From the IMG/VR virus record IMGVR_UViG_3300017716_001697, positions 96,001-160,000 of that record: a DNA stretch of 64,000 bases; one strand, written 5' to 3'. The notes beneath the pieces are model-generated. The model did no database searches and was not told the origin of the DNA. It saw nothing but the letters and a program-made list of their open reading frames with translations. Position 1 is the stretch's first letter, and each line of letters opens with the position of its first letter. This DNA is from a virus (lineage: Duplodnaviria > Caudoviricetes). Shown here piece by piece: positions 21,248 to 49,150 of this stretch. The translations under genes were made by a program, and so were the position numbers.

Positions 21248-22471
21248 ATGGATGAAAAAATCACGTGTTCATTTTGCAGTAAAGACCGTAATCAGGTTGA
21301 GCATATGATCGAAGGTCCCGTGCAGGACCAAGACAAGAAGCCTCTGTATATATGTAATGAGTGCGTAGACTTTAGTTTCGATGTCTTACACACCGTTTCA
21401 ACTGATGAGAAGCCGGTAAGGAAAAAGAAAGATAAGATTCTTGTACCTGAGCAAATTAAAGCACATCTTGATGAATACATTATTGCTCAAGATTCAGCTA
21501 AGATTGCTCTTTCTGTAGCAATATATAATCACTATAAGAGAATCAACAATAAATCCAAAGATACTGAGATTGAAAAATCTAATGTGTTAATGGTAGGACC
21601 GTCTGGATCGGGGAAAACGCTAACAGTAAAAACTATTGCAAAATTGTTTGACTTACCGTACGTAATTGCAGATGCAACATCTATTACTGAGGCAGGGTAT
21701 GTCGGCGAAGACGCAGAAAACTTAATAACACGTCTTATTTCGAATGCCGATGATGACATTGAATTAGCCCAACACGGTATTATATTCATTGACGAAATCG
21801 ACAAGAAAAGCAGGAAGAGCGAATCTTCAACTGTTCAGCGTGATGTCTCGGGCGAAGGTGTTCAGCAGGCATTACTTAAGATGATAGAGGGTACCATTAT
21901 AAAGATACCCGACGGGTATGATGATCATATCGAGTTTGATACAAAGGATGTACTGTTTATAGTAAGTGGCGCATTCGTAGGATTAGATGAGATTATTAAG
22001 AAAAATCGATCAAAGACTAGTATAGGATTTGGCGCCGTACTAAAGACACAGTCTACATTTTCGGAAATAGTGAAGACTGCTGACCCAGAAGATTTTGTTA
22101 GGTTCGGCCTTATCCCGGAATTCGTTGGTCGTTGCCCTGTTACTGTTGTGTTCGATGATTTAACAATAGAAACCATGATTAGGATTCTTAGAGAGCCTAA
22201 AAATAGCATTGTTAGCCAATTCAAGGCATTATTCAAATATGAAGGTGTTCTTTTGGAGTTTGATGATAAATACCTACAGAATGTTGCTGAAACATGTATT
22301 AAACAGAAGGTAGGTGCAAGAGGATTACGTGCTACTATGGAGCGTGATTTGCAGGGCCTACAATATATTTTACCGCGAATCGCCAAAGAGGGTGTTTCCA
22401 AAATTACAATTGACGCAACTGGAAGTGCAAAGTATATTTATAAAACACGAAAAAAGAAGGTAAATGAATGA
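21248..22471 (+). CDS. clpX: ATP-dependent Clp protease ATP-binding subunit ClpX
   Basis: CSFC..ICNEC zinc domain, [42 protein letters not shown] loop, GARGLR. Confidence 0.95.
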
Positions 22472-22728
22472 GTAACCGTTATAGAGATTCCCGTAAGACC
22501 CGCGGCCTAACAGTTGAAGTCAGAAATGATGATTTTGGTAGAGCACTAAGGACCTTTTCTAAGAAGATCCAAGATCTTGGCACCATGCAAGAAGTTAAGG
22601 AGCGCATGTCATACGAGAAGCCAGCAGTGGCTCGTCAACGCCTAAAGAAACAAGCGCGGAAACGTTGGGAAAGAAAGGTCGAAGATATGATCGCCAACGG
22701 ATTATGGCATAAAGACCAGCCGTATTAA
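22468..22728 (+). CDS. rpsU: 30S ribosomal protein bS21
   Basis: [39 protein letters not shown]. Confidence 0.85.
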
Positions 22729-22763
22729 CAGATCAATATCTCTGTGCGTACATTACGACAGAG

Positions 22764-22770
22764 ATAAATA
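22764..22770 (+). promoter_or_regulatory. T4-late-like promoter ATAAATA for hsp20
   Basis: Direct match. Confidence 0.6.
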
Positions 22771-22772
22771 AA

Positions 22773-22854
22773 TTTTGTGGGGTGCCCATGGTGGGGCCTT
22801 ACAAAATAACGTGCATAGCACGAACAAACTTGCTTTAACTAAGGAGTTAAAAAT
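22773..22854 (+). promoter_or_regulatory. Structured hsp20 5' leader with ROSE-like RNA thermometer
   Basis: Three hairpins; the last pairs ACUUGCUU with AAGGAGU (SD) with the G bulged, the ROSE U(U/C)GCU signature. Confidence 0.65.
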
Positions 22855-23271
22855 ATGTCTATAAATCGCGAATTCGATCGTCTATTCGATCACCTCAATC
22901 AAGTTGCAGTTGGCTTCGGCCCTATATTTAGGGACTTCCAGCACACCTCGGCTAATTATCCTCCACACAACATCATTACTATTTCGGATAATGAATTCAA
23001 TCTTGAATTAGCTGTTGCCGGATTTAAAAAGAGTGAACTCACAATCCAGGAAGATGGTGGCGTGCTTACGATATCAGCTGATAAAGCTAATGTCGCTAGT
23101 GACTCAACCACATATCAACACCGTGGTATTGCAAAAAGGTCATTCTCTAAGTCTTTCCGTATTGCAGAGCACTTTGAAATACGTGAAGCTAACCTAGAGG
23201 ATGGGATTCTTACTATTAACTTTGTTAATAATACGCCAGTAAACCAACCTAAACTTATTGCTATAACGTAA
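22855..23271 (+). CDS. Small heat-shock protein Hsp20 (IbpA-like)
   Basis: NYPPHNI, LELAVAGF, YQHRGIAKRSFSKSF, ANLEDGIL. Confidence 0.92.
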   Translation: MSINREFDRLFDHLNQVAVGFGPIFRDFQHTSANYPPHNIITISDNEFNLELAVAGFKKSELTIQEDGGVLTISADKANVASDSTTYQHRGIAKRSFSKSFRIAEHFEIREANLEDGILTINFVNNTPVNQPKLIAIT

Positions 23272-23276
23272 TCGAG

Positions 23277-23305
23277 TTGACACAATGCCCTGTAGAGTAT
23301 ATAAT
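23277..23305 (+). promoter_or_regulatory. sigma70 promoter TTGACA-N17-TATAAT
   Basis: Perfect consensus upstream of clpS. Confidence 0.8.
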
Positions 23306-23332
23306 AGTATTATTACTCTCAGGGCAACTAAA

Positions 23333-23644
23333 ATGGCAACACCAGACATAGAAATCATCGAGAAGATTGATGAAAGAATTAAGGTACATATCCCAAGTAT
23401 GTATAAGGTAATTCTGCACAATGACAATACGACAACCGTGGATTTTGTTATCCACGTATTGATGCGCATCTTTCATAAGACGCTCGAAGAGGCACTAGCA
23501 ATCACACAATTAGTACACGAAAACGGGCAAGGCATTGCTGGCAGTCCTTACACTAAAGAAATAGCTGAAGAGAAATCACTGGAGACAATTGGCATTGCAA
23601 GGGCAAACAATTTTCCACTGGTAGCAACCTACGAAGAAGTATAA
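23333..23644 (+). CDS. clpS: Clp protease adaptor ClpS
   Basis: PSMYKVILHNDNTTTVDFVIHVL..IF..VHENG.G...EIAEEK..AR.NNFPL. Confidence 0.9.
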   Translation: MATPDIEIIEKIDERIKVHIPSMYKVILHNDNTTTVDFVIHVLMRIFHKTLEEALAITQLVHENGQGIAGSPYTKEIAEEKSLETIGIARANNFPLVATYEEV

Positions 23645-23647
23645 ATA
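23640..23647 (+). promoter_or_regulatory. T4-late promoter TATAAATA
   Basis: Exact T4 late consensus overlapping the clpS stop. Confidence 0.6.
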
Positions 23648-23669
23648 TCTCGTACACAACGAGAACTCA

Positions 23670-24704
23670 ATGGCATCAAACTTAATTCAAATTAAAGCAT
23701 TTCTTGGAAAATATTATCCGGAATTAGCATACTCTGTAGCGCAAGACAAATATATCAAGACTGGCATAAGCAAATTTCTCGAACAAAGATTTATTATTCA
23801 GAATAATAAAACTCAGATGGTAATTGATCCCAGTCTTAAAGGGCTGGTAGCCATTGTTGCTGGCAATGAAATATTTGTCAGTAAAGAATTGTACGAACAC
23901 ACGAATGTGAACGTAACAAATTCGATGGAAACACCTAATACAAACAATAACCCTAAGAGTTTATATACACCAGAAATTTTCTCTTCGATGGCATACCTAA
24001 TTTGCCAAAATCATACTATGTTCAGCATAGTAGGGGAAATTGATGAACCGATCTATATTAGATACAGATCAGACTATGAATCATTTTATAATTCGGTAAT
24101 CATTGTAAATATTGCTGACGGAATAGACGTGGAAATTGTCGAAGAATTCGAGAGTTACTGTGCACTGAATGCTGTGACTAATTACATTCTTCAACCCAAT
24201 TCTAGGTTAACTGTATCAACCTTCTATCAGAATCACCTGTCTGCGCTGTCATTCTGCCTTAGAAATGTTATAGTACAAGACTCGGCAAAATACAGCCACA
24301 CATTGTTCGGCCGTGGCTCGTCTTGTGTGCTAGACGAAAGTAAAATTCATGCAAACGATAAGTCATCGGTTGAATTAATGGCATGTATCAATCCCGTGCA
24401 ACAAGAATTTCATACAATTATAGGTGTTCAACCCGGCGCACAAGATTACAAATTCTTGTTAGACCATAGACATGTTGTCTCGGGGAGAGGGAGAACAACA
24501 TTCACACCCGTGATCATAGGGCACCTACCGGCAGATTCCTATTCTAACATTAGCTCTATAGTGTTAGATGATGCTGACGAGGAAGTAAGGGCAATAAGGG
24601 CGAAGAATTTCTTATCGTCGATTGTCGAACGATCAACACTGGAACGAACAGTGGGAGTCGAACGATTCTACGATAATAAATCTAAGTTTCTTCAATTTCA
24701 ATAA
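23670..24704 (+). CDS. Divergent SufB/SufD-like beta-helix protein
   Basis: PIYIRY..IIVNIADGIDVEIVEEF..NAVTNYILQPNSRL..YQN..RNVIVQDSAKY.H..FG pattern resembles the SufBD core; by-eye only. Confidence 0.5.
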   Translation: MASNLIQIKAFLGKYYPELAYSVAQDKYIKTGISKFLEQRFIIQNNKTQMVIDPSLKGLVAIVAGNEIFVSKELYEHTNVNVTNSMETPNTNNNPKSLYTPEIFSSMAYLICQNHTMFSIVGEIDEPIYIRYRSDYESFYNSVIIVNIADGIDVEIVEEFESYCALNAVTNYILQPNSRLTVSTFYQNHLSALSFCLRNVIVQDSAKYSHTLFGRGSSCVLDESKIHANDKSSVELMACINPVQQEFHTIIGVQPGAQDYKFLLDHRHVVSGRGRTTFTPVIIGHLPADSYSNISSIVLDDADEEVRAIRAKNFLSSIVERSTLERTVGVERFYDNKSKFLQFQ

Positions 24705-24744
24705 ATAGTAAGTAGAATAATAATTAATTTTGCGGGGTAATTAC

Positions 24745-25074
24745 ATGTATAAAATAACAAATATAGAGACATTGGGAACAGATTATGCTGTTGCTAATCA
24801 GGACGGTAAGATACTTAAAAATATCCGTATTGTACCTCATACGGAAATTCTAGAAGCAGCATTAGGCCCATACACTGAAGAATTCGGTGATCTTAGTTCC
24901 TATATTGCGAAATCTATTGCGGTGTTGGAGGGTAATGAAGATTTGAGCCCGTATAACATATATTGGCACTCAACTGAAGATGAAGAAGTTGTGTTATCTG
25001 AAGTTATCGAATATGCAATCAAACATGGTTATGATATTATTATATTAGAGCATCTAGATCCCACAAATGAATGA
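24745..25074 (+). CDS. Hypothetical acidic protein
   Basis: ORF; ATG 24745. Confidence 0.55.
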   Translation: MYKITNIETLGTDYAVANQDGKILKNIRIVPHTEILEAALGPYTEEFGDLSSYIAKSIAVLEGNEDLSPYNIYWHSTEDEEVVLSEVIEYAIKHGYDIIILEHLDPTNE

Positions 25075-25258
25075 TAATGATCGGCTGCGTCCGAATGTAT
25101 GCACATGGATAGGCGACGAAGAAGGGTGTCGCCACCCCACTATATACGGTAAATCGTATTGTGAAACACATCACAGTAGAATGTACATTACACTATTTGC
25201 TGAGATGGCAGATTATATTATTGAACAAGAATTAACACACAATAAGGCAGTGCAATGA
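25067..25258 (+). CDS. Small C3H zinc-finger-like protein (resembles GcrA C-terminal domain)
   Basis: CTWIGD..C...GKSYCETH. Confidence 0.5.
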   Translation: MNDNDRLRPNVCTWIGDEEGCRHPTIYGKSYCETHHSRMYITLFAEMADYIIEQELTHNKAVQ

Positions 25259-25416
25259 CTACAGGTCACTGGTTAAACTTAACAGATCGAAAATCGCAGT
25301 CATTTACTATGCAGGCCACTACTATGTGTGCGGTAGTTATTGTGGTTACACCAATATTAGCGGCGCTAATGCTTGGTAGTATAGCAATAAAGTCAATTGA
25401 AAAAATAAGTAAATAA
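25255..25416 (+). CDS. 53-aa membrane peptide (below ORF-track cutoff)
   Basis: ATGA overlap; MTTGHW...AVVIVVTPILAALMLGSIAIK..; translated by hand. Confidence 0.45.
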   Translation: MTTGHWLNLTDRKSQSFTMQATTMCAVVIVVTPILAALMLGSIAIKSIEKISK

Positions 25417-25423
25417 TCTAATT

Positions 25424-25451
25424 AAAAAGGGTACCGTTGTGTACCTTTTTT
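25424..25451 (+). terminator. Intrinsic terminator
   Basis: AAAAAGGGTAC-loop-GTACCTTTTTT. Confidence 0.7.
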
Positions 25452-25477
25452 AATGGCTCATAGATCGGCCTTCCTTG

Positions 25478-25484
25478 ATAAATA
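25478..25484 (+). promoter_or_regulatory. T4-late-like promoter ATAAATA
   Basis: Direct match upstream of the 863-aa gene. Confidence 0.6.
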
Positions 25485-25526
25485 CAATATTAGACAATAT
25501 TGTGTTAACAGATTTAGGAGCCAGTA

Positions 25527-28118
25527 ATGGATCAACGAGACGAATTTAGCAAATGGATGACATCAATTGAACAGGCTCTTACTGAAGAATCTACTGTAGT
25601 TGATGAAGAATTACTTGAACAAGGTTCTTGCGGTGGATGCGGTGCATGGGATTGCCCAGAGTGCTTCCCTGATGCAGATGGTGCCCTAGACGGTGCACAA
25701 CAAATTCCGGCAGTTATTATCATCGGTGCTACACCAGATGCACAAGGCCAATCTGTTGGTCAACCACCTGCTCCAACTGAAGAACCACCTGCACAACCGC
25801 AGGGCGTGGGGATGGCAGGAACTCATCCAGTAGATGGCGATACGTTCGACCACGACGAAGAAGACGAAATTGACGTAACAATGATGGGCCAGGACGCCTT
25901 CGCCGAGGAAGACGAAGACGACATGGAGATGACACAACAACCTCTTCCACGTTCCGGCAACGGTGGCGTCACACTTGGTCATATTGTTCAGAAATTTGTA
26001 AAGGCTGGCGGCGGTGAAGAAGGTAGTGAAGAAGAATTGTCCGAAGATGATGGCGACGCATCTGAAATGATTGGTAAGATTATGTACATGCAAGACATGG
26101 GTCTAAGCAATGGTCAACATAATTACAACGAAGCTCAATTAGGTGCATTGCCACCAGAGCAACTAAAGTTAATACACGATGAAGTTACAGGTAATGTATC
26201 TGAAAATTCGAGTAAGCCAACAAAGCCGCAAACAAAGCCGAATAACTGGGACGGGCTTGACGATATATTGAATCCTACACCAGACCAGCCTATTGCAAAC
26301 TATGATAACACTGATGACGGTGAGCATAATGACACAATGCCCGATCCAGAAGCAACACCTTCTATGCCACGTGCATCAGCAGCGTCAACAAGGGCTAAAA
26401 CACAAGGAATGACTCCATCTGATACAATGCGCGATTTCATGGGCCGTATTAATCCAGAAGCGGGCGCAGGCGAGCCAGATATTGAACCCGAAGATACAAC
26501 CAATGCATTAGTTGCTAGAACAGCAGCCGATGTTCCGGCAGTTATAAGCGCCGCGATGCGTGTGGCTGGAGTAGAGATGCCAGAATGGCATTCCGTGAAT
26601 AATTTGCCTGGTTTTTCGCAATCAAACGTTCGTGGAATGGGTCGTAAAGTGTTCAGCATGTTCACATCTACTCCGCTAGAACAAATACAGACAATTGCTA
26701 ACGTCGATGGGCAAGGCCCTAACACAGATGCAGAATTACGTTCTGTAGCATCCTGGTTAATGAACAATGCAGACGACCTCGGTGAAGTAAAATTAGATCA
26801 CGGTGCAGCTATTCCTGGATACAAACCCGATGTTAAAGAATACAGCATAAATGGCGTAAGGTTCCATGTAGTAAGAGATCCGATGGGACAGTACATTTAT
26901 GCATATCCAGATGCAGATGCAAAGACAAATACGGGCGCAGGAAGACTAGGACAAGGACAACAACCACCACAGGGCGCTATGCCTAGAATACGCGAAGGGA
27001 AAGATATGGCATTTAGATTAACAATTACAGAAGCTATTAAGTTAGATGATATTATTAGAGAAGGGTTAGCTTCGTTGATTTTTGAATCCGAAGTAGTAGA
27101 TGAAAGTTCGCTTAGTAAGGTATTGGGTAAGAATAAAGGCGGACAACAACTTGTTCGTTTCTTGCATAGCAAACACAAATTAAGTAACGAAGCCCAATTA
27201 GAGCCAGTTAAATTCAACAAAGATCTGTTGTGGTCGCAATTTAAGAGCCACCCGGACGATTTTGTGATTGTATCCGGGGCCAATGGTGCAGCAGGTATCA
27301 AGCCTTCTAAGAAGCATTTCGATGATTATGTCAAAGCAAAGCAAGATAAGGGCCAGACGCCTAATCCAGGAAGAAACAGTTCGTTACAATACCAAATTGT
27401 TGCGTTTACTGATGATGGCGAGCGTGTTGATCCGGAATTGTTACGAGTACAACCCGAGCCAGGCGACGAACCAGTGCAACGTGACGTTGATCCGACTGTA
27501 ATGCGAGCACGTATGGGTAAAAACATTGGTTCCGATCTGCAGAATGCTAATAATACATTCAGATTGTTAAATGACCAAATTGGCCCTATCACGACTGTAT
27601 GGATTTCTGGTTTTGGTGGCTATCGTGGCGACCCCGATTCAGTTAAACCAGCAGTAGGTTCCGTTGAAAGAGATAAGATGAAAGCCCGTGACGAATTAGG
27701 TGCCGGGCCAGGTCGTCAGAAAGACCAAAAGCCTATGCCCGAACGTGAATCAGTGAATGCAGTCTTTAAGATGATTCGCCCAGTTCTTAAGAAATTAACT
27801 GCTGAAGCAATGTCTCCATTAATGAATGCACGTAAGCGTGCTATTGATGCTGATAACGAAGATCAAGTCGAAAGACTAACAGCGCGAATTAAGAAAATGA
27901 AGAATTTCCTAGAGCAGATAGACACCTCCGCTGATGTTGATATCAACAGTTCCAGCTTTGGACCATCACTTAGGCTTGCACTTGCTACAGCAGCTGGTGC
28001 CCGCAGCGGATCTGAAGAATATAAGCAATATCTGTCAGCAGCCGCCCGCGGAAGTCGTGCAGCATTGAAACCTGTGCTAGATGCGCTTAGAGACGAATTC
28101 TTTGCAAAGTTGGGATAA
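25527..28118 (+). CDS. Large acidic multi-segment putative head-internal protein
   Basis: Late promoter and AGGAG RBS; low-complexity linkers, many (I/L)xE-(S/G/A) sites, VTLGHIVQ motif shared with the next gene. Confidence 0.6.
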   Translation: MDQRDEFSKWMTSIEQALTEESTVVDEELLEQGSCGGCGAWDCPECFPDADGALDGAQQIPAVIIIGATPDAQGQSVGQPPAPTEEPPAQPQGVGMAGTHPVDGDTFDHDEEDEIDVTMMGQDAFAEEDEDDMEMTQQPLPRSGNGGVTLGHIVQKFVKAGGGEEGSEEELSEDDGDASEMIGKIMYMQDMGLSNGQHNYNEAQLGALPPEQLKLIHDEVTGNVSENSSKPTKPQTKPNNWDGLDDILNPTPDQPIANYDNTDDGEHNDTMPDPEATPSMPRASAASTRAKTQGMTPSDTMRDFMGRINPEAGAGEPDIEPEDTTNALVARTAADVPAVISAAMRVAGVEMPEWHSVNNLPGFSQSNVRGMGRKVFSMFTSTPLEQIQTIANVDGQGPNTDAELRSVASWLMNNADDLGEVKLDHGAAIPGYKPDVKEYSINGVRFHVVRDPMGQYIYAYPDADAKTNTGAGRLGQGQQPPQGAMPRIREGKDMAFRLTITEAIKLDDIIREGLASLIFESEVVDESSLSKVLGKNKGGQQLVRFLHSKHKLSNEAQLEPVKFNKDLLWSQFKSHPDDFVIVSGANGAAGIKPSKKHFDDYVKAKQDKGQTPNPGRNSSLQYQIVAFTDDGERVDPELLRVQPEPGDEPVQRDVDPTVMRARMGKNIGSDLQNANNTFRLLNDQIGPITTVWISGFGGYRGDPDSVKPAVGSVERDKMKARDELGAGPGRQKDQKPMPERESVNAVFKMIRPVLKKLTAEAMSPLMNARKRAIDADNEDQVERLTARIKKMKNFLEQIDTSADVDINSSSFGPSLRLALATAAGARSGSEEYKQYLSAAARGSRAALKPVLDALRDEFFAKLG

Positions 28119-28119
28119 C

Positions 28120-30027
28120 ATGTATTTAGATAGTCTTATAGAGTCCTTATTACTAGAAGGTGCCACGCTGACTAAAGGTAGTCAGCGTGTAATGAATGAT
28201 AAAAAACTTGTGCCAGCATTAGCTCAGACAGTTCGCGATGATGTTGCTATCAACCCCGCATCATTTCCAGCAGGTTCTAAGAACAATTTCAAGAAAGCAC
28301 CAGACGAAGAAGTAGCAAGCTGGTTCTTGGAAAATTTAGATAACATTGAACGTGCAGGATACGATGGTGCTGTATATTCGCGTGACGGTGCAAACAGTGA
28401 CTGGATTACTCGCAGGTACATTGCCGGTTCACATAATTGGGAAGATATTACTGGTGTGCTGAATATGAATTTATTCGACTGGTATGCATTAAAGAATCGT
28501 GATGCGCTAGATGCTAACCATCAGCAGATATCAAAATTCAATAGCATTCGTCAGATCGGTTCTTATATGGTAACACATTATAGGCAAGAGCTAGAACAAA
28601 CTCGCGATGCTGCTAAGAACGCTGCAAAAGATAAGTTAGCCAAGGCTATTCCTATTCTCGATAATGACGATTATAAGATATTCTGCACACTCAACCGTAT
28701 AGCAGGATGTAAACTGGGTCGTGGCACTCAATGGTGCACAGCAAATACAACTACAGATCAACATTATCATAGATATTCTAATGAAGCTATGTTATTTCAG
28801 TTGTTTCCTAAGAACCCCGAACAGGTTAGCAAACAAACCCGTGGTGGTAGGAAGACCGAAGGATCTGAAAAATATCAATTCGGTGCAGACGATAATGGCT
28901 CGTTCATGGACATAGCTGATGATCCTGTACCGAAGAATGTAGTTAGGACAAAGTTTCCATATCTGTATTCAGATCTTGTTGATGCGTTAACAAAGAATAA
29001 GGCTAAGATTGATACTGCAACAGAAAAGTTATCAGCAGATCCTACATTGCAGACAACTGATACAAAAGTTAAGAATTATAACGTAGATGATGAAATTAGA
29101 AAATTGCATAGGTTTGTAGACCGTGGATTCTTCACTGACGAAGTGCGCCCACCGAAGACTGCAGACCCAGCATTAGAACAACCGCCTCAGGCACCCCAGG
29201 AGAATCCAATGGAAGATATGAAGTCATTAGCAAAATCTATGCTAGAAGATGTGACATTAGGGCATATTGTACAACAATATAAACCGGCTAATAGTGACGG
29301 AGAAGAATCCCCTTTAACACACGGTGATGATAATCTCGATGAAGGTGAGCCTATGATCGGCGATGCTAAATCTAGATTAGTGCAGACATTAATGAGCCGC
29401 CAAGCTGCTATCGACGAAGAAGATGCAATGGCAGCACCTGCTCCCGGCGCAGCACCGATGCCCGGTGGTGAAGTAGGCGGACAAGCACAAACTGGTGGCA
29501 CATTAGGTGGCGCTGGCGGCGGTATGGGTGGTGGCGGGCAATATGCACCAGGAACGGCGCCCACAATGCCAGAATCAATTAACCAACAAGGAAAAGTTAC
29601 AATGGAAAATGTAGATAAAGACGTAGCAGCAATGCTTAACACATTAAAGAAATATGACAAGCTTACAGAAAGTGTACTAGGTATGGCTACTGTTGGTATG
29701 GCAAACAAGCGTGTTGTCGAAGATGACAACGATGCAGATGATGCAGAAATCGATGCCGACAAGAATGACATCGAAGCAGACGAATTAGACGAATCTGGAC
29801 CAGCTAAGAAAGACGTCCCTGCATTCTTGCGTAAAGAAAAGGGTGGCGACTGGAAAACATCTAAAGATGATTTAGAAAAAGAAAAAGACGACAAGATCAG
29901 CGATCCTAAAACACTTGCTAAGAACAATGGAACAAAGGTTGATGAATCAGCTGGTGTTGATCCAGAAATTCTTGAGTGGATGGGGCGTTTTGCTAAATTA
30001 GGCAACATGAAAGGTTACGGTAGATAA
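28120..30027 (+). CDS. Large putative head-internal protein with GxGTxWCTA (PcfJ-like) segment
   Basis: ATG 28120 follows upstream stop; CKLGRGTQWCTAN motif; acidic Gly/Pro-rich C-terminal half. Confidence 0.6.
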   Translation: MYLDSLIESLLLEGATLTKGSQRVMNDKKLVPALAQTVRDDVAINPASFPAGSKNNFKKAPDEEVASWFLENLDNIERAGYDGAVYSRDGANSDWITRRYIAGSHNWEDITGVLNMNLFDWYALKNRDALDANHQQISKFNSIRQIGSYMVTHYRQELEQTRDAAKNAAKDKLAKAIPILDNDDYKIFCTLNRIAGCKLGRGTQWCTANTTTDQHYHRYSNEAMLFQLFPKNPEQVSKQTRGGRKTEGSEKYQFGADDNGSFMDIADDPVPKNVVRTKFPYLYSDLVDALTKNKAKIDTATEKLSADPTLQTTDTKVKNYNVDDEIRKLHRFVDRGFFTDEVRPPKTADPALEQPPQAPQENPMEDMKSLAKSMLEDVTLGHIVQQYKPANSDGEESPLTHGDDNLDEGEPMIGDAKSRLVQTLMSRQAAIDEEDAMAAPAPGAAPMPGGEVGGQAQTGGTLGGAGGGMGGGGQYAPGTAPTMPESINQQGKVTMENVDKDVAAMLNTLKKYDKLTESVLGMATVGMANKRVVEDDNDADDAEIDADKNDIEADELDESGPAKKDVPAFLRKEKGGDWKTSKDDLEKEKDDKISDPKTLAKNNGTKVDESAGVDPEILEWMGRFAKLGNMKGYGR

Positions 30028-30042
30028 TATCTATCAATCAAG

Positions 30043-30064
30043 AAGGCACTTCGGTGCCTTTTTT
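30043..30064 (+). terminator. Intrinsic terminator
   Basis: AAGGCAC-TTCG-GTGCCTT-TTTT. Confidence 0.85.
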
Positions 30065-30077
30065 AATGGCCGAAATT

Positions 30078-30106
30078 TTGACTTTCGATTAAGTAAGTGT
30101 TATAAT
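30078..30106 (+). promoter_or_regulatory. sigma70-type promoter TTGACT-N17-TATAAT
   Basis: TTGACTTTCG variant. Confidence 0.75.
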
Positions 30107-30125
30107 TATTTAATTGGAGGACTCA

Positions 30126-30896
30126 ATGTCACATAAAGAAAAATTTTTAGAAGAATGTATTGTACTGGATACGGAAACAACCGGTAAAGATTACAATACG
30201 GCTGAAATTATTGAAACAGGGTTTGTTATCCGCGAAGGTGGAGAATGGATCTTATTTCAGGACTTACATAAACCTAAAGGCAAGATTCCACCAATGGTAG
30301 AGTCTATATGCTACATCACGAATAAAATGGTTGAAGACAAACCAGTCTTTGTTGATGCAAAAGAAACATTTCAAACAGTAGTCGATGGGTTTGCAAATGG
30401 GTATGCTGTAGGTCACAATTATTTCTATGATATGAAAGTATTGCAGAATCACGGTATTACAATGCCTAAGAATTCTATCTGTACATGGCGTATGGCTAAG
30501 AAGTTGTTTAATGGCATGAATGAGATTGAAAGTACAAGTCTACCATATTTGCGTTTTGCACTAGAACTAGATGTGCCAATTGATATGTACTGCCACCGTG
30601 CGGGCAACGATTCGTTTATAACCGGCAAATTACTTGAAATTATGGTGGATTTAATGGAGTCGTCTGATCTACTGGACCTAGACATGCCATACGGTCCACA
30701 AATTGCAGAATGGGCCGCAGCGCCTATTATTTACGAGCGTATGCCGTTTGGAAAACATAAGGGCGAACTAATGATCGATGTGCCACATAGCTACTGGAAG
30801 TGGGCAACACAGAATATGGATTCGCTAAACGAAGATGCTGATAACTTCGATCCCGATCTTGCGGCAAGCGTGCATAAGGCACTGGGACTAAATTAA
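30126..30896 (+). CDS. DEDDh 3'-5' exonuclease (ExoX/DnaQ-like)
   Basis: LDTETTG..IIE, GHNYFYD, HRAGND; C-terminal MPFGKHKG..DVPHSYW; GGAGG RBS. Confidence 0.88.
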   Translation: MSHKEKFLEECIVLDTETTGKDYNTAEIIETGFVIREGGEWILFQDLHKPKGKIPPMVESICYITNKMVEDKPVFVDAKETFQTVVDGFANGYAVGHNYFYDMKVLQNHGITMPKNSICTWRMAKKLFNGMNEIESTSLPYLRFALELDVPIDMYCHRAGNDSFITGKLLEIMVDLMESSDLLDLDMPYGPQIAEWAAAPIIYERMPFGKHKGELMIDVPHSYWKWATQNMDSLNEDADNFDPDLAASVHKALGLN

Positions 30897-30897
30897 A

Positions 30898-31071
30898 ATG
30901 GCTACAGCTAGAAATGATATCACTGGAGACTCACTAGCATCAAAGTCATCCACCGACGCCTATCGTAAAGGGTGGGAAACAACGTTCGGGAATAAGGCAG
31001 CAGAACTAGCTGTAGAGACTAAATTATCTGAGCAGACAGATCCGTCTGACGCAGAAAGTAACGACCTATAA
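30898..31071 (+). CDS. 57-aa phage protein (below ORF-track cutoff)
   Basis: MATARNDITGDSLASK..DAYRKGWETTFG; translated by hand. Confidence 0.6.
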   Translation: MATARNDITGDSLASKSSTDAYRKGWETTFGNKAAELAVETKLSEQTDPSDAESNDL

Positions 31072-31121
31072 TTTGGTCAGTGCACAGGGCACTAAAAATT
31101 AAAACACAAAAGGAAATATAA

Positions 31122-31313
31122 ATGTCAACATTACAATCAATCAAAGAAGCAATGGCAGCACTGGAAACAGAAGATGCAAAATTTACAGCTGGCAATTCTG
31201 CTGCTGGCACCCGCGCTCGTAAGGCACTTGGTGATCTACAGAAACTTGCTAAGGTACGCCGTAATGAAATTACTGAAGAAAAGAACGCACGTAAAGAAGC
31301 AAAAGCTGCTTAA
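31122..31313 (+). CDS. Histone H1-like Hc1-family small basic protein
   Basis: GNSAAGTRARKALGDLQKLAK.RR.EI; AAGGA RBS. Confidence 0.75.
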   Translation: MSTLQSIKEAMAALETEDAKFTAGNSAAGTRARKALGDLQKLAKVRRNEITEEKNARKEAKAA

Positions 31314-31700
31314 TTACTGACCGTTATTATTTTTAGCGCCATCCATTTCAGAAGACATCACAGCAGGTGCAAACGGCTGGTACTTCTGAACATGGTGGTC
31401 GTACGGTAAACCAGCGTGTGCTAATGCATATTGCAAACCCCTGAATCCAGGACTTTGTAATTTAGTACCCTCTGGTTTATTATTATATTTCGCCTGAGGC
31501 TTATCTACTGGCTTCGTAAATACAGGCACAACATCTTCTTTAAACCACTCTTTAAAATGCTCGTCATAGTACTCAGCATTCTTCTTTTTATACTTAACAT
31601 CATCGGGATTATAGAATTCATCGTAATCCTTGCTTGCTTCTTTGTAGAATCGTGCTACAATGTCTGTTGCACTCTCGTTGAGTATATCTTTAATTTTCAT
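31314..31700 (-). CDS. Putative head-internal protein (starts MKIKDILNES)
   Basis: ATAAATA 31712-31706, 5 nt before ATG; N-terminal motif family. Confidence 0.6.
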   Translation of the reverse strand: MKIKDILNESATDIVARFYKEASKDYDEFYNPDDVKYKKKNAEYYDEHFKEWFKEDVVPVFTKPVDKPQAKYNNKPEGTKLQSPGFRGLQYALAHAGLPYDHHVQKYQPFAPAVMSSEMDGAKNNNGQ

Positions 31701-31713
31701 AATACTATTTATC

Positions 31714-31959
31714 ATGTCGTCTAGGTATCTTCCAGTTAAACATAATGCACAATGGTGGAATCACTGGTCTGCATTTTACAAATACTGCGATTCCTATAAA
31801 TCAGGGCAGGCATACTGTGACGAGATGAACTTAATAGCAAGGAAATTAAGAAAGTTCAACGGAACGATAGTATATAATACGGTTAATCCTCCGGGTATAA
31901 TCGGATTAGAATTTAACACCGACGAAGATTTACTAATTTTCAAATTAACATTTAACTAA
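31714..31959 (+). CDS. Small protein of the F-x3-D-x3-FKL family
   Basis: C-terminal [17 protein letters not shown]. Confidence 0.55.
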
Positions 31960-31970
31960 GGAAACACAAA

Positions 31971-32567
31971 ATGCAAAATGCTTTAATCCCAATGGTCGTA
32001 GAACAAACCGCTCGCGGCGAACGTTCGTACGATTTGTATTCGCGCTTGATGAAGGAACGCATTGTGTTCTTTACGGGTGAAGTCGAAACCAATATGTGCA
32101 ATGTGCTTATTGCACAGTTGCTATTCCTTGAAGCTGAAAATGCAGAACAGCCAATCGGCATGTATATCAACAGCCCGGGCGGCTCTGTGTATGATGGATT
32201 AGGCGTATATGATGTTATGAATTACATCAAGTGCCCCGTGCATACATATGTGACAGGCATGGCAGCAAGTATGGGCAGTTTCATTGCACAAGCTGGAGAG
32301 CCTGGGCACCGTTATTTGATGCCACGTTCGATTACAATGATTCACCAACCTAGTTCCGGTACACGTGGTAAGGTGTCTGACATGGAAATTGATTTGCTTG
32401 AAAGTCTACGTATCAAGAAGGAAATGACTGAATTGTATGTTCAGCATAATTCGCGTGGCACGACATTCGAAAAGTTTGCCGAACTGATGGACCGCGATAA
32501 GTGGTTGACAGCACCACAGGCTCTTGAATTGGGCCTTGCTGATCACATTGTCACAAAAAGAGTGTAA
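31971..32567 (+). CDS. clpP: ATP-dependent Clp protease proteolytic subunit
   Basis: [35 protein letters not shown] (Ser), MIHQP (His), DRD (Asp). Confidence 0.96.
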
Positions 32568-32580
32568 TTCTGGATGGTGG

Positions 32581-32587
32581 ATAAATA
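32581..32587 (+). promoter_or_regulatory. T4-late-like promoter ATAAATA
   Basis: Direct match. Confidence 0.55.
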
Positions 32588-32611
32588 AAGTTACTATATA
32601 AAGGGTAACAT

Positions 32612-33340: not shown

Positions 33341-33356
33341 AAATGTCAACATATTC

Positions 33357-33385
33357 AAACCGGGCTTGCCCGGTTTCGTTGTTTT
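33357..33385 (+). terminator. Probable terminator
   Basis: AAACCGGG-CTTG-CCCGGTTT then T-rich. Confidence 0.6.
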
Positions 33386-33397
33386 ATTAACCATATT

Positions 33398-33426
33398 TTG
33401 ACTTGTACATCTGTACATGCTATACT
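33398..33426 (+). promoter_or_regulatory. sigma70-type promoter TTGACT-N17-TATACT
   Basis: Direct match; spacer contains TGTACA twice. Confidence 0.7.
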
Positions 33427-33450
33427 GTATATTATAACACAGGGGATTGC

Positions 33451-33678: not shown

Positions 33679-33691
33679 CAAAGGAAATATC

Positions 33692-35304: not shown

Positions 35305-35312
35305 GGAATAGA

Positions 35313-35666: not shown

Positions 35667-35681
35667 ATATAGGGCCCGGCA

Positions 35682-44535: not shown

Positions 44536-45111
44536 ATGACAACAGACTTAGATTCCATTAAGAACACATTAGTAAATATATCGAAAGGCAATTCTTTGCT
44601 CGATACATTGCTAGAGTTCGAACGCACTCTAGATAATGCAGAAATATTTGCATACAAGAACTGGATACTTGGCGAATTAGTTGAGGGTCCGGACATTAGT
44701 AGGTACTGGTATAAAACAGTGTGGATGTATCCGTATGCTATGATGCCAGATCCAAACGCTGGATTACGATTAACAAAGCTAGGCGCTAAAGTTAATTTTA
44801 GAAAAGGGACATTCAAGAAGCCGGTTAAGGTGCATGGCCCTGAAGATTGGGCAAATCCAGAGACCAAACGTGCTAAGATGGCTGAGCACGAAGTTTGGCT
44901 AGTTACTATTGATCTCCCATTAAAGTACATAAACAACGGCTTAGAGAAGGCAGACGATATTATTCAACAAGACATAGCTGCTACTAATGCAGAGATTGCT
45001 GATGCTTATGATGAACAGCCTGAAGATGATAGCATGGATATGACCGGTGGTGACGAAATGGCTCCGGACGAAGGAATGCCGACAGACGCGCCACCTGAGG
45101 AAGAACTATGA
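44536..45111 (+). CDS. Phage hypothetical protein, late
   Basis: LLEFERTLD..YKNW..GELVEGP..MPDP motif; acidic tail. Confidence 0.7.
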   Translation: MTTDLDSIKNTLVNISKGNSLLDTLLEFERTLDNAEIFAYKNWILGELVEGPDISRYWYKTVWMYPYAMMPDPNAGLRLTKLGAKVNFRKGTFKKPVKVHGPEDWANPETKRAKMAEHEVWLVTIDLPLKYINNGLEKADDIIQQDIAATNAEIADAYDEQPEDDSMDMTGGDEMAPDEGMPTDAPPEEEL

Positions 45112-45860
45112 GTTTAAAGAATGGGGATTTGGAAGGTACAATTCTTCCTATAGTATCGATTGATGAATTTGAACCGAAAGCAGGTGATGTACAAGATATC
45201 ATTGTTGTAGCCTTCTATCTAACTGATCAAGCACCTGCCGACGATCTTAACACATTTATTCAACGTGGTGTTATAGATACATTAGATGTATGCGTAAGCC
45301 CTAATACTGACGATGACGGTCGATATCTTGTGTTTGTTGAAATGGAGAGAAATGAGACATTTCAAGAAAAATTTCAGGCACTGTTAAAAGATGTAGATAA
45401 TGTGGCTGGTAAAACTGATTGGAAAATTAAAACATATCTGTCAGACGATAAAGAGTTTGATTATACCGATCCAACATTTTACAAATTTATTATTGTTAAC
45501 CCAGAAGAGTATGTATCAAAGGACGAATTTATGAAAGAATCAATGCAGGCTAACGTTAAAGAGTTCTTAAGTGATGCACATATAATGTATTGCAATTTTG
45601 AAGGCAACAACATAACAATCGGTGCAGGTCAACGCAAAATTGTCGCGGAAGTTGTTGATGTGGGCGATTACGATACTGTAATAGGCAGGAATTTTCTTGC
45701 TGAATCTGCGTTCAGGTTGACAAATAGGCCAATAGAAGCTACAGTACTAACAGGACTGCTAGGTGTCTACGATGTCATGCCAATAGGTAAATTCTTATGT
45801 GTTGGTAAAGATGACAAAGTGATGTTACTTAGAAACACTGAACTTAAATACAGAGGATAA
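45108..45860 (+). CDS. Phage hypothetical protein, late
   Basis: ATGA overlap, 250 aa. Confidence 0.7.
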   Translation: MSLKNGDLEGTILPIVSIDEFEPKAGDVQDIIVVAFYLTDQAPADDLNTFIQRGVIDTLDVCVSPNTDDDGRYLVFVEMERNETFQEKFQALLKDVDNVAGKTDWKIKTYLSDDKEFDYTDPTFYKFIIVNPEEYVSKDEFMKESMQANVKEFLSDAHIMYCNFEGNNITIGAGQRKIVAEVVDVGDYDTVIGRNFLAESAFRLTNRPIEATVLTGLLGVYDVMPIGKFLCVGKDDKVMLLRNTELKYRG

Positions 45861-45863
45861 AAC

Positions 45864-46079
45864 TTGGCTAAAGATGATGTTATTGTTACACGTGGTCGCA
45901 TTACAGATGCTGCACCCGGAGCGCGATTCAAGGTTACACTAGAAAACGGGCATATAATGAATGCAATCGTTAGTGGTAAGATTAGAAAGAATAATATCCA
46001 GATCATCCTTGATGACCTGGTAGAGGTAGAAATGTCAGTATACGACATGAACTTAGGTAGAATCACATACCGATTTTAA
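45864..46079 (+). CDS. infA: Translation initiation factor IF-1
   Basis: MAKDDVI..G.I....P.A.FKVTLENGH....SGKIRKNNI.I...D.VEVEMS.YD...GRITYRF; GAGG RBS, TTG start. Confidence 0.93.
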   Translation: MAKDDVIVTRGRITDAAPGARFKVTLENGHIMNAIVSGKIRKNNIQIILDDLVEVEMSVYDMNLGRITYRF

Positions 46080-46091
46080 AGAAAGCTTAAA

Positions 46092-46925
46092 ATGAGCAAA
46101 CGGGATTATTACGATATCCTCGGCGTTGCTAAAGATGCATCCGACGATGACATTAAGAAAGCTTATCGCAAACTAGCAATGAAATATCACCCGGACAGAA
46201 ATGTCGACGGTGATAAGACTGCGGCCGAAGTCAAGTTCAAAGAACTACAAGAAGCATACGAGTGTCTGTCTGATCCAGTCAAACGAGATACGTATAACAG
46301 GCATGGTCATCAAACTCCCGGTGCCAGCCCTGGCGCTCGTTCGTACACACATTCATCGCACAATGTAGATATTAACGAAATATTTAGCAGCATGTTTGGC
46401 GGCGGCCGTAACCCGTTCGGTGATATGTTTGGCGGCGGACAAGCAAATGCTCATCGGCCGCAAATGCAACGCCACATACTGAAAATGCCGTTGGAAGATG
46501 CTTACACAGGCAAACAACTAAGATTACCCGCCGGTATAACGTTGAATATTCCGGCAGGCGCAAGATCGGGCACAAAGTTTGTCGCTGATAACGCAATTTA
46601 TCAATTAGAGATTCAACCTCATGCAAGATTTAAACGATCAGACGATGATTTATTAATTGATGTTGAAGTATCTGCAATTGAAGCCATGCTAAGTGTGGAG
46701 GCAACACTTGACCATTTAGATGGTAGTAAGTTACAATTTACTATACCTGCGGGTATACAAAACGGTCAGGTAGTTAGGTTGAGTGGGAAAGGTATGAAAA
46801 ATCCCGAGCACGACAGGATAGGTGATTTGATGATACGAATTACTGTTACTACACCCAGGAATCTAACTGATGAACAACAAGCATTCTTAAAAACAATGCA
46901 ACGCCGCGAAATGTTAAATATTTAA
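46092..46925 (+). CDS. dnaJ: DnaJ-family co-chaperone (J domain plus C-terminal domain, no zinc finger)
   Basis: [29 protein letters not shown] region, RLSGKGM..GDL. Confidence 0.9.
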
Positions 46926-46933
46926 GGAATATA

Positions 46934-49150
46934 ATGAGTACCAAAAAAGTAGAGAAAATGATTGAACGTGCTGTCGTTATTGCTAATGACAACAATCACG
47001 AATATATAACATTGGAACATATCTTGCTTTCTCTGTTACATGAGAAAGACATTAACGAATTAATCTTAGGCATTGGTTCAGTTCCCGGTGTTGTGAAATC
47101 TGAAGTCATTACATTTCTTAATGACCCGGCATTGAAGAAGCCCGAGGCGTTGAAAGATGTACCGGCAAAACGTACGACTGTACTACAAAGAACAATGCAA
47201 CGTGCATTGACACAACTTGTTTTCAGTGGTCGCAACGAACTTACTACTGAAGCTGTGCTGATTAGCATCCTTAGTGAGGAGACAAGTCATGCATACTATT
47301 TCTTGGCTAAGAATGGTATCACACGTGAGAAACTTATCGCAATACTGAAGAAGAGTGATGAGAAAGCTGCAAATGCTGACGAAAGCCCACTTGCTTTGTA
47401 TGCACGTAATTTAAACAAAGAAGCAGCTGACGGCACGATTGATCCAGTCATTGGGCGGTCAAAAGAAGTTGCTGATACAATCGAAATCTTGGCCCGCCGC
47501 AAGAAGAATAATGTTGTATACGTAGGCGAGCCAGGCGTGGGTAAGACTGCACTTGCAGAAGGACTTGCACTAAAGATTACAGAGAAAGATGTACCTAAGT
47601 CATTGCATGACAAGGTAGTTTATAGTTTAGACATTGGTGCACTTATTGCCGGCACAAAATTCCGCGGTGATTTCGAAGAACGCCTTAAGGGTGTGCTCGA
47701 TGAAGTTAAGAAGCTCGGCAACGTAATTATGTTTATTGATGAGATTCACATGATTCTGGGTGCAGGTTCGTCGGGCAGCAGTACAATGGATGCTGGTAAT
47801 TTGCTTAAACCTATGTTAGCAAAGGGTCAGTTAATGTGTGTAGGTGCAACAACATACGACGAATTTCACGAACACTTTGAGAAAGATAAGGCACTGTTGC
47901 GCCGCTTCCAGAAGTACGATATCAACCAACCTAGTGCTGCTGAAACAAAATTAATTCTTGCAGGTTTGCAAAAACATTATGAAAAATTCCACGGCGTAAC
48001 CTACGACATGGGTTCTACAGATTTGTGTGTAGATTTGGCAGACAGGTATTTGAAGAATAAGTTCTTCCCTGATAAAGCATTAGACATCATGGATGCAGCA
48101 GGTGCAGTAACTAAACTTGCTGAAAATAAAACTGTATCAATGCATACTGTATTGGAGCAGGCATCTAAGATTGCTCGTATCCCATTGGACATGATGGATG
48201 TTAAGGCAAATGATGCATTGGCTAATCTTGAACCTAGATTGAAAAATAAGGTGTATGGTCAAGATAATGCATTGGTTGCACTTACTGAGGCAATTTATAT
48301 GGCCAAAGCGGGATTGCGCAAGCCTAACAAGCCAATCGGTAATTTCTTATTCACAGGTCCTACCGGCTCAGGTAAAACATATACGGCAGAGAAGCTTGCG
48401 GAACTGCTGGGTGTTAAACTAGTGCGGTTTGACATGTCGGAATATATGGAAAAACACACTGTTTCCAAACTGATTGGCGCTCCTCCCGGCTATGTAGGCC
48501 ACGGCGAAGGCAAGATGGGTGAAGGGCAACTTATTGCAGAAGTGGACGCCAATCCTAACTGTGTGTTATTGCTTGACGAAATCGAGAAGGCATCACCAGA
48601 TATCTTCGCTGTGCTATTGCAAGTTATGGATGCAGGTCGCTTAACTTCTAGCAAAGGTAAGACAGTTGATTTCTCTAATGTGGTTCTTATTATGTCTGCC
48701 AATGCAGGTGCATCGGATGCAGAAAAGAAACGTATCGGATTCGGAAATCAAGATAACAGCAGTGCCGTTGATGTTGAACTTAAACGTTTGTTTACTCCAG
48801 AGTTTAGAAATCGTTTAGATGCTGTAATTAAATTCAACAAGTTAGGCATTGAAGAAATGCGTATGATTGTTAATTCCGAAGTCGAGAAGACTGAAGCTAC
48901 ATTAGAAGTCAAGAACATCACACTAACAGTAACAGCACAGGCAAGGGACTGGTTGGCAACAAATGGATTAGATCCACAAATGGGTGCAAGGCCATTTGAA
49001 CGACTGTTCGAGACGAAAGTTAAGAAACCGCTATCTAAAGAAATTTTATTCGGTAAGTTGAAAGACGGTGGTCATGTTGTTGTTGATATTGTTAATGGCG
49101 AATTAGTTGTAAACACACATTCGCGTGCATTAGAACCAGTAGTCATCTAA
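46934..49150 (+). CDS. clpA: ATP-dependent Clp protease ATP-binding subunit ClpA
   Basis: N-domain HEYITLEHILLSL; GEPGVGKT, AGTKFRGDFEER, IDEIH; GPTGSGKT, RFDMSEY, LDEIEK; IGF loop; no ClpB M-domain. Confidence 0.92.
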   Translation: MSTKKVEKMIERAVVIANDNNHEYITLEHILLSLLHEKDINELILGIGSVPGVVKSEVITFLNDPALKKPEALKDVPAKRTTVLQRTMQRALTQLVFSGRNELTTEAVLISILSEETSHAYYFLAKNGITREKLIAILKKSDEKAANADESPLALYARNLNKEAADGTIDPVIGRSKEVADTIEILARRKKNNVVYVGEPGVGKTALAEGLALKITEKDVPKSLHDKVVYSLDIGALIAGTKFRGDFEERLKGVLDEVKKLGNVIMFIDEIHMILGAGSSGSSTMDAGNLLKPMLAKGQLMCVGATTYDEFHEHFEKDKALLRRFQKYDINQPSAAETKLILAGLQKHYEKFHGVTYDMGSTDLCVDLADRYLKNKFFPDKALDIMDAAGAVTKLAENKTVSMHTVLEQASKIARIPLDMMDVKANDALANLEPRLKNKVYGQDNALVALTEAIYMAKAGLRKPNKPIGNFLFTGPTGSGKTYTAEKLAELLGVKLVRFDMSEYMEKHTVSKLIGAPPGYVGHGEGKMGEGQLIAEVDANPNCVLLLDEIEKASPDIFAVLLQVMDAGRLTSSKGKTVDFSNVVLIMSANAGASDAEKKRIGFGNQDNSSAVDVELKRLFTPEFRNRLDAVIKFNKLGIEEMRMIVNSEVEKTEATLEVKNITLTVTAQARDWLATNGLDPQMGARPFERLFETKVKKPLSKEILFGKLKDGGHVVVDIVNGELVVNTHSRALEPVVI

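Follow-up and report, generated by a model that had tools for sequence, protein, structure and literature searches.

A conserved Clp proteolysis module with altered ClpX and ClpS specificity positions and a nested clpS promoter in a PA5oct-related jumbo phage

The window analyzed in this study is a 64,000-bp stretch of viral DNA (bases 96001-160000 of the record IMGVR_UViG_3300017716_001697) from a jumbo myophage related to phage PA5oct, and it carries the genes of a two-branch Clp proteolysis system along with several chaperone genes. By gene content, the protease is supplied whole by the phage, comprising the ClpP barrel, the unfoldases ClpX and ClpA, and the ClpA adaptor ClpS. The explanation we favor is that these genes probably constitute a conserved, catalytically intact, and vertically inherited Clp module with its own substrate choice and split regulation. 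The gene set is already known from the public annotations of related giant phages. The new observations are a ClpX that lacks the RKH loop and has a changed pore-2 loop, a ClpS pocket that is a trait of the lineage, and a nested clpS promoter together with split regulation. Coordinates are positions in the window unless marked as genome positions.

The record is that of a freshwater phage of 364,576 bp with direct terminal repeats, and its genome contains a T4-type portal gene, an S77 prohead protease gene, a gp23 capsid gene, 45 tRNA genes, and one transfer-messenger RNA (tmRNA) gene. A tail sheath gene was not found in the genome with PF04984, which has no bearing on the Clp genes. Gene identities were assigned by Pfam scans of the plus-strand open reading frames (ORFs), and motifs were located by alignments to solved Escherichia coli proteins. 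One intact copy each of clpP, clpX, clpA, and clpS was present in the complete genome. The genes that a first-pass annotation had named (ClpX, ClpS, ClpP, ClpA, DnaJ, Hsp20, and a GroES-like protein) were all recovered by Pfam on the plus strand where it had placed them, as follows.

21248..22471, plus strand, clpX, 407 amino acids, with zf-C4_ClpX, AAA_2, and D2-small domains (Pfam)
22855..23271, plus strand, hsp20, with an alpha-crystallin domain at residues 43-137 (PF00011, E-value 1.1e-13)
23333..23644, plus strand, clpS, 103 amino acids, with a corrected start (PF02617, E-value 3.8e-24)
31971..32567, plus strand, clpP, 198 amino acids, matched at residues 15-196 (PF00574, E-value 1.8e-66)
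40522..40872, plus strand, T4 gp31-type/GroES-like co-chaperonin, 116 amino acids (phrog_931)
46092..46925, plus strand, dnaJ, class-B J-protein (J domain, E-value 3.3e-27; DnaJ_C, E-value 3.5e-22)
46934..49150, plus strand, clpA, 738 amino acids, with Clp_N and two AAA+ modules (Pfam)

The catalytic and docking motifs that had been claimed for these proteins were intact in the alignments to the E. coli proteins. ClpP aligned with E. coli ClpP (3mt6, E-value 1.9e-61), its triad matching Ser97, His122, and Asp171 of the E. coli protein, and it has just three residues ahead of the point where mature E. coli ClpP begins, leaving almost no propeptide. ClpX has a C4 zinc domain (PF06689, E-value 5.3e-10) with both C-x-x-C pairs and a 7-residue insert between them, followed by a single AAA+ module with Walker A and B motifs and a GYVG pore-1 loop (E. 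coli ClpX 8e91, E-value 3e-112). Its ClpP-docking loop reads IGF in the window, IGI in four relatives, and MGF in PA5oct. ClpA residues 4-719 aligned with residues 4-735 of E. coli ClpA (E-value 2.5e-196) with no middle (coiled-coil) domain, and ClpB and ClpC scored below ClpA and only in pieces. The pore loops of ClpA are K-F-R in D1 (K-Y-R in E. coli, the aromatic residue being kept) and GYVG in D2, and the docking loop is IGF (IGL in E. coli). The ClpS fold matched the Caulobacter and E. coli ClpS structures with E-values of 6e-16 and 1e-13, respectively. From these sequences, the genes look functional and under strong constraint.

On the folding side, the phage provides co-factors only, namely a class-B DnaJ, a gp31-type co-chaperonin, and Hsp20. 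DnaJ has the HPD motif that had been reported, within a recognizable J domain, and a Gly/Phe-rich linker; it lacks the four C-x-x-C-x-G-x-G zinc-finger repeats of class A and is thus a class-B, CbpA-like protein. The gene that had been called GroES does encode a co-chaperonin, but its best family match was T4 gp31: phrog_931 (head morphogenesis) at residues 2-94 with an E-value of 1.5e-13, compared with 2.2e-5 for phrog_3188 (GroES) and a weak match to Pfam Cpn10 (E-value 3.5e-5, residues 3-53 only). As neither Hsp70 (DnaK) nor Cpn60 (GroEL) was found in the complete genome, the J-protein and the co-chaperonin must use the DnaK and GroEL of the host.

The four clp genes were searched by tblastn against 50,697 phage records. 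The first-pass annotation, which held individual clp genes to be known in large phages, had proposed a co-occurrence check of the four; the full set proved not to be unusual for such a phage, since all four genes were found in eleven PA5oct-type Pseudomonas phages, Agrobacterium phage Atu_ph07, Sinorhizobium phage Phosso, and Salicola phage SCTP-2. The set is therefore not a discovery as such but a module conserved in a jumbo-phage lineage, one member of which has been cultured and published. A megablast search of the clpX-clpS stretch against the phage records returned no match, and the relatives were detectable only at the protein level. A 30-kb block is syntenic with PA5oct, and 30 ORFs within 15600-53300 have homologues in the same order. 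The block is retained gene for gene in four jumbo-phage contigs from IMG/VR, among them a complete genome of 369 kb. Identity to the window protein is 76-87% for ClpA in these four relatives and 85-87% for ClpP in three of them, placing both among the best-kept proteins of the block.

A ClpX tree was built with eleven full-length bacterial ClpX proteins from ten phyla, a poor bacterial sample in which scan patterns are query-specific. The window clade and PA5oct formed one clade (98/95) apart from bacterial ClpX, Lak-B2 ClpX grouped with that of Bacteroidota, the ClpX of Atu_ph07 and Phosso occupied a separate branch, and SCTP-2 ClpX was a long branch. A single clade of all phage ClpX proteins lacking RKH, including that of SCTP-2, was absent from the best tree, although the data did not reject it (approximately unbiased test, p-AU 0.25). 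Because the clade formed with PA5oct stands apart from bacteria, the phylogeny indicates a vertically inherited phage lineage rather than a recent capture.

The first branch of the system differs from its bacterial counterpart at the residues that read substrates. In E. coli ClpX, Arg228 and His230 of the RKH loop and Thr199 of the pore-2 loop contact the ssrA tag and set specificity (PMC7652416). In place of the RKH loop, the window ClpX has a shorter, acidic D-G-Y-D-D-H, and glutamine replaces its pore-2 threonine. R-K-H is kept by E. coli ClpX and nine of the 11 bacterial ClpX proteins and the S-I-T pore-2 sequence by eight of the 11; phage G and Lak ClpX keep both. The loop is deleted or replaced and the pore-2 threonine changed in the window clade, PA5oct, and SCTP-2. 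The general statement that ClpXP handles tagged substrates, on which the first-pass annotation relied, therefore cannot simply be transferred to this phage, and a tagged-substrate role of its ClpXP cannot be assumed, since the loop and the residue that read ssrA are altered. These changes would be expected to alter the specificity of ClpX and not its clade membership. A short contig in a Methylococcaceae bin (CAIOMN010000077.1, 1887 bp) encodes a ClpX that is 70% identical to that of the window, lacks RKH, and falls inside the phage clade; it is probably a phage contig that was binned with bacterial DNA, and it offers a weak host hint at best.

For ClpS, the start had been placed at 23285. The ATG at this position lies inside the promoter spacer, and the ORFs of relatives begin at or within a few residues of 23333, which is thus the true start. 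The resulting protein has an N-terminal extension of about 22 residues, and its metagenomic homologues are mostly 101-103 amino acids long. Its pocket does differ from the E. coli type, as had been noted from the string HNDNTT: it reads H-N-D-N-T-T-T-V in the window and V-N-D-D-Y-T-P-M in E. coli, corresponding to Asp36 to Asn, Tyr37 to Thr, Pro39 to Thr, and Met40 to Val. The N-degron residues Asn34, Asp35, Thr38, and His66 all align and show little or no variation in about 110 relatives; position 36 and the gatekeeper at position 40 are not of the E. coli type, being Asn and Val. Among the approximately 110 ClpS proteins of the clade, His33-Asn34-Asp35, Thr38, and Thr39 do not vary; Asp (57%), Asn (39%), and Glu (5%) occur at position 36, Thr, Lys, or Ser at position 37, and Phe, Val, or Met at the gatekeeper. 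The N-D-N pocket is common to the window, PA5oct, and SCTP-2. From this clade-wide pattern, a pocket of the form H-N-D-(D/N)-(T/K)-T-T with gatekeeper F, V, or M is a lineage trait, with variation at two specificity positions. The degron site of E. coli ClpS is formed by Asp35, Asp36, and His66 (PMC9810338), and the gatekeeper sets the selectivity of plant ClpS1 (PMC7966870). More than 240 ClpS clusters of the window type were found in metagenomes, many on contigs of 100-360 kb.

The surface of ClpS that binds ClpA is also conserved. The motif T-x-E-I-A-E-E-K (Glu79/Lys84 region) was invariant in 25 ClpS sequences, and a complex model of the phage ClpA N-domain with the ClpS core scored 0.86, while the best of three controls scored 0.00; 58 of 80 solved complexes attained this mark, as did two of 110 mismatched pairs. 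The runs agreed in at least 97% of contacts with a partner predicted local distance difference test (pLDDT) value of at least 94, and the modelled interface is the surface equivalent to that of E. coli. As a similar E. coli complex has already been solved, this result shows likeness and not binding.

The first-pass annotation had proposed that timing is split between clpS and the unfoldase genes, and the elements on which it based this proposal are present. They are listed here with the other members of the operons concerned.

19577..19583, plus strand, ATAAATA late-type promoter motif, preceded by G, heading the orf552-clpX-S21 operon
19588..21246, plus strand, gene of 552 amino acids, first of the clpX operon, with its stop 1 nucleotide before the clpX start
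22468..22728, plus strand, ribosomal protein S21 homologue (PF01165, E-value 3.9e-14), its start overlapping the clpX stop
22764..22854, plus strand, ATAAATA motif and structured hsp20 leader of about 85 nucleotides, an architecture kept in four relatives
23277..23305, plus strand, clpS sigma70-type promoter, TTGACA, 17 nucleotides, TATAAT (12/12 matches)
23287..23325, plus strand, inverted repeat (hairpin) enclosing the clpS -10 box (-20.9 kcal/mol, z-score -6.0)
44511..44517, plus strand, ATAAATA late-type motif, preceded by G, heading the operon that ends with dnaJ-clpA, conserved with its flanks in four relatives
44536..45860, plus strand, two virion structural genes of 191 and 250 amino acids (phrog_12928 and phrog_13138, both with E-values of about 1e-31)
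45864..46079, plus strand, initiation factor IF-1 homologue with a TTG start (PF01176, E-value 2.5e-16)

A perfect sigma70 promoter was thus confirmed ahead of clpS, and clpX and dnaJ-clpA proved to belong to operons headed by ATAAATA at 19577 and 44511. The gene in second position of the former operon is clpX, and the 552-amino-acid gene ahead of it is conserved in four relatives and had no Pfam or PHROG match. The latter operon begins with the two virion structural genes, whose PA5oct homologue gp295 was detected in virions, and IF-1 is its third gene, between the virion genes and dnaJ, and is kept in four relatives.

Both promoter classes are enriched genome-wide. About 20 genome sites match TTGACA-16/17-TATAAT at 12/12 positions, with about 0.1 expected by chance; they are mostly intergenic and clustered at 180-290 kb before runs of small ORFs, with eleven of them within 258-277 kb ahead of ORFs of 55-130 amino acids. 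As a sigma70 cluster before small ORFs is typical of phage early regions, 180-290 kb is a likely early region. The other class, GATAAATA, has 76 copies in the genome, of which 74% are intergenic compared with an intergenic genome fraction of 9.7%. The copies sit 10-60 nucleotides before start codons and head the portal operon, divergent structural operons, and virion protein genes, and the motif resembles the T4 late promoter TATAAATA (PMC3014915). Since the two classes fall as had been claimed, the idea of split timing has real support in the sequence, and we regard it as plausible.

The clpS promoter is nested in the hairpin. Its 5' arm is located between the -35 and -10 boxes and thus upstream of the transcript start, which is predicted near 23312, and the 3' arm ends 6 nucleotides before the clpS start and carries a purine-rich stretch that is the likely Shine-Dalgarno sequence. 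An RNA started at the clpS promoter is therefore predicted to lack the 5' arm, and an RNA reading through from hsp20 to contain both arms. TTGAC, the -10 box, and the hairpin were in the same place in all 15 related leaders, with hairpin energies of -16 to -27 kcal/mol (z-scores of -2.5 to -6.8). In the outer helix, 95% of the cells pair, one pair shows CG, UA, GC, and AU, and the stem sequences differ between relatives; its covariation score was reached by none of 500 shuffles. RNAalifold gave no structure on the MAFFT alignment of the clpS leaders, in which the 3' arms were out of register, and single-sequence folds and a trimmed alignment were used. A U-rich sequence follows the hairpin in some relatives, where it may also act as a terminator. 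In PA5oct, clpS has its own TTGACG-16-TATAAT promoter after a separate terminator.

A permuted two-piece tmRNA was found outside the window at genome positions 30513-30870, with 145 bits for RF01850 (threshold 84) and 120 bits for RF04321. The beta-proteobacterial tmRNA model fits best, which may hint at the host. The tag predicted by ARAGORN ends in A-L-V-A, and that of the complete relative ends in A-L-A-A. Neither SmpB nor SspB was found in the genome. The phage's own tmRNA makes tagged substrates plausible, and S21, IF-1, the large tRNA set, the co-chaperones, and the Clp genes would together fit a theme of phage-run translation and quality control.

In the favored reading, ClpS would be made early and from its own promoter only. 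In read-through RNA from hsp20, the hairpin would fold and either stop that RNA or conceal the ribosome site, as in T4 e, soc, and I-TevI. The early ClpS would dock first on the N-domain of host ClpA and later on that of phage ClpA, and would turn ClpAP away from its default substrates and toward proteins bearing particular N-terminal residues. The first-pass annotation had put forward early ClpS as redirecting host ClpAP, with a late takeover by the phage enzymes and with defense proteins or antitoxins as putative targets. In our reading, the phage unfoldases would rise with the late genes, probably together with ClpP, and clear substrates chosen by the phage, including misfolded and truncated products of heavy late translation. 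The net role would be a phage-controlled turnover of the proteome in a long infection, independent of a failing host supply.

A further extension of this scheme is possible, though we consider it rather unlikely: an autonomous programme, with timing and degron rules of its own, in which ClpS, translated only from the early promoter in its hairpin, takes over or blocks host ClpAP, and the RKH-less ClpX and ClpA, acting later with ClpP, clear phage-specific substrates that include tmRNA-tagged proteins (A-L-V-A), their loops having co-evolved away from the bacterial ssrA and N-degron code.

Several observations weigh against the favored reading. The terms early and late are assigned here from promoter type and neighboring genes; GATAAATA also stands ahead of many non-structural genes and may mark middle as well as late transcription, and the window promoter analysis assigned no promoter to clpP. 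Clp goes unmentioned in the omics paper on PA5oct, whose list of early genes leaves this region out, although the PA5oct record annotates the Clp genes. The window hairpin has no U-tract, and the hiding of the ribosome site would follow from the position of the 3' arm, 6 nucleotides before the start. The expected effects of Asn at position 36 and of the gatekeeper are argued by analogy with E. coli and plant ClpS mutants, and Asn36 is not fixed, since most relatives (57%) have Asp there.

Among the rival explanations, a use of ClpA, ClpX, and ClpP mainly in virion assembly, by unfolding and translocating proteins into the head or trimming intermediates and not by general degradation, would account for the position of dnaJ-clpA in an operon with two virion genes behind a late-type motif, and for a gp31-type co-chaperonin, the head-folding factor of T4, in the same block. 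Such a role has been proposed for jumbo-phage ClpA and ClpX by Iyer et al. (PMC7824862), and the PA5oct ClpP record bears an ESI-MS/MS note. The same flag, however, is found on non-virion enzymes such as thymidylate synthase and is missing from ClpA and ClpX of that record, the head module has a dedicated T4-type prohead protease, and an N-degron adaptor with an early-type promoter is hard to fit to assembly alone, so that we consider this explanation unlikely. A system that served mainly to destroy host proteins (defense, regulatory, or nucleoid proteins) and recycle their amino acids, with early ClpS aiming host ClpAP at them, would fit the early-class promoter of clpS. Phage ClpS was interpreted by Iyer et al. 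as a carrier of targets to host ClpAP (PMC7824862), both ClpS and ClpX have altered specificity determinants, and close relatives differ at the gatekeeper (F, V, or M), a pattern expected of a site under changing selection. But unfoldases in late-type operons would come late for counter-defense, the degradation of antitoxins would free toxins and harm the phage, and the neighbors S21, IF-1, Hsp20, and DnaJ suggest quality control; a host take-over as the main function is accordingly unlikely.

A recent capture of host genes that kept host-identical specificity and merely raise the Clp dosage is very improbable. Each of the four Clp proteins shares 45-55% identity with bacterial homologues in an end-to-end alignment, and other phages have made such captures (Lak-B2 ClpX groups with Bacteroidota, and phage G and Lak keep RKH), but the synteny with PA5oct at 36-54% identity for the four Clp proteins, the ClpX clade of the window relatives and PA5oct apart from bacteria, the loss in this lineage of the RKH loop kept by the canonical bacterial ClpX proteins compared, and the N-D-N pocket common to PA5oct and SCTP-2 all argue against it. 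The loss of ClpX loops that matter in E. coli for recognizing substrates might suggest inactive decoys, which would titrate the Clp partners or substrates of the host and degrade nothing; with the triad, all Walker motifs, pore-1 aromatics, and ClpP-docking loops intact, and with ClpA and ClpP among the most conserved proteins of the block, this idea is extremely unlikely.

Some further features of the block were recorded. The clpX gene is followed by S21 in the window, PA5oct, and SCTP-2 (35% ClpX identity for SCTP-2) and by IF-3 in Atu_ph07 and Phosso, giving a recurrent link of clpX with small translation factors in jumbo phages. The hsp20 leader consists of GATAAATA, two conserved hairpins, and a weak hairpin pairing C-U-U-G-C-U with the ribosome site A-G-G-A-G; it looks like a ROSE-type RNA thermometer, although an Rfam search of 19000-50500 at E-values up to 1 found no known RNA family and no ROSE element for this leader. 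A SufBD-like gene lies directly after clpS at 23641-24704 (weak PF01458 match, E-value 6.5e-7); ATAAATA and a conserved hairpin (T-C-T-C-G-T-A ... T-A-C-G-A-G-A) stand ahead of it in three of the four relatives, and no homologue of it occupies this place in PA5oct. The two genes of 863 and 648 amino acids at 25527-30027 had no Pfam or PHROG match and are conserved in relatives, and their place in PA5oct is occupied by FtsH, an FtsH-interacting protein, and DNA ligase. In one IMG/VR relative, ClpP (about 52318-52863) is 53% identical to that of the window, compared with about 85% in the other three, and an insertion of about 9 kb separates the exonuclease gene from clpP, which may reflect a replacement of clpP. 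Some RefSeq records of related phages describe ClpP as the head-maturation protease; this assignment was rejected, as the head module has its own T4-type S77 prohead protease. A minus-strand PhoH gene (44458-44535 region) has an ATAAATA motif ahead of it on that strand, placed back to back with that of the dnaJ-clpA operon, and relatives share this layout.

That giant phages carry translation genes is known. The present lineage also has the other end of protein life, namely a tagger (tmRNA), an adaptor, two unfoldases, and a protease. The altered ClpX loops and ClpS pocket provide concrete hypotheses on changed substrate choice, and PA5oct, which infects a laboratory strain, shares these features and thus offers a direct route to testing them. 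The clpS promoter within a hairpin would be a conserved case of a T4 device running the other way in time. Four points are worth following: a ClpX without RKH, a ClpS pocket that varies, the nesting of the clpS promoter, and a possible link to tmRNA.

Jumbo-phage ClpP, ClpS, ClpA, and ClpX are mentioned by Iyer et al. (PMC7824862), and the Atu_ph07 paper lists ClpX, ClpA, ClpB, ClpP, ClpS, and DnaJ and speculates on their roles (PMC6102473); no functional study of a jumbo-phage Clp set was found in the literature. The nearest known block is that of PA5oct (vB_PaeM_PA5oct, MK797984; Arenbergviridae, Wroclawvirus) and ten near-identical records. Its order is that of the window (ClpX, S21, Hsp20, ClpS, exonuclease, ClpP, MazG, co-chaperonin, and clamp loader, then PhoH on the other strand, virion protein, DnaJ, and ClpA), with 24-54% identity for the Clp and chaperone proteins, and it shares a sigma70-type promoter of clpS, the RKH-less ClpX, and the N-D-N ClpS pocket. 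In the PA5oct numbering, ClpX is gp255, ClpS gp260, ClpP gp272, DnaJ gp297, and ClpA gp298. It differs in having FtsH and DNA ligase where the window has the SufBD-like gene and the genes of 863 and 648 amino acids, in lacking an IF-1 gene before dnaJ, and in keeping terminator and clpS promoter separate where those of the window are nested; a permuted tmRNA was not found in PA5oct. Atu_ph07 and Phosso likewise combine all four clp genes and DnaJ in one jumbo phage, but their genes are scattered over the genome and their ClpX keeps an R-K-N loop, and Atu_ph07 also has ClpB.

With E. coli ClpXP and ClpAPS, the phage system shares the domain architecture, catalytic residues, pore-1 and docking loops, ClpS extension, and ClpA-binding motif. 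It differs from E. coli in the deleted RKH loop, the Thr199 to Gln change, and the 7-residue insert in the zinc domain of ClpX, and in the lack of SspB. The co-chaperonin resembles T4 gp31 in its phrog_931 match, its length of 116 amino acids, the lack of a phage GroEL, and the presence of a T4-type gp23 capsid; as a point of difference, it also weakly matches true GroES/Cpn10. The closest parallel to the clpS leader is likewise found in T4, where e, soc, 49, and I-TevI have a promoter between the arms of a translation-blocking hairpin (Uzan and Miller 2010, PMC3014915). In both designs, only the RNA started upstream can fold the hairpin, and the RNA from the inner promoter is free of it. In time, clpS would be the mirror image of T4, the arrangement read here from the sequence having the sigma70-type promoter nested and the late-type motif upstream.

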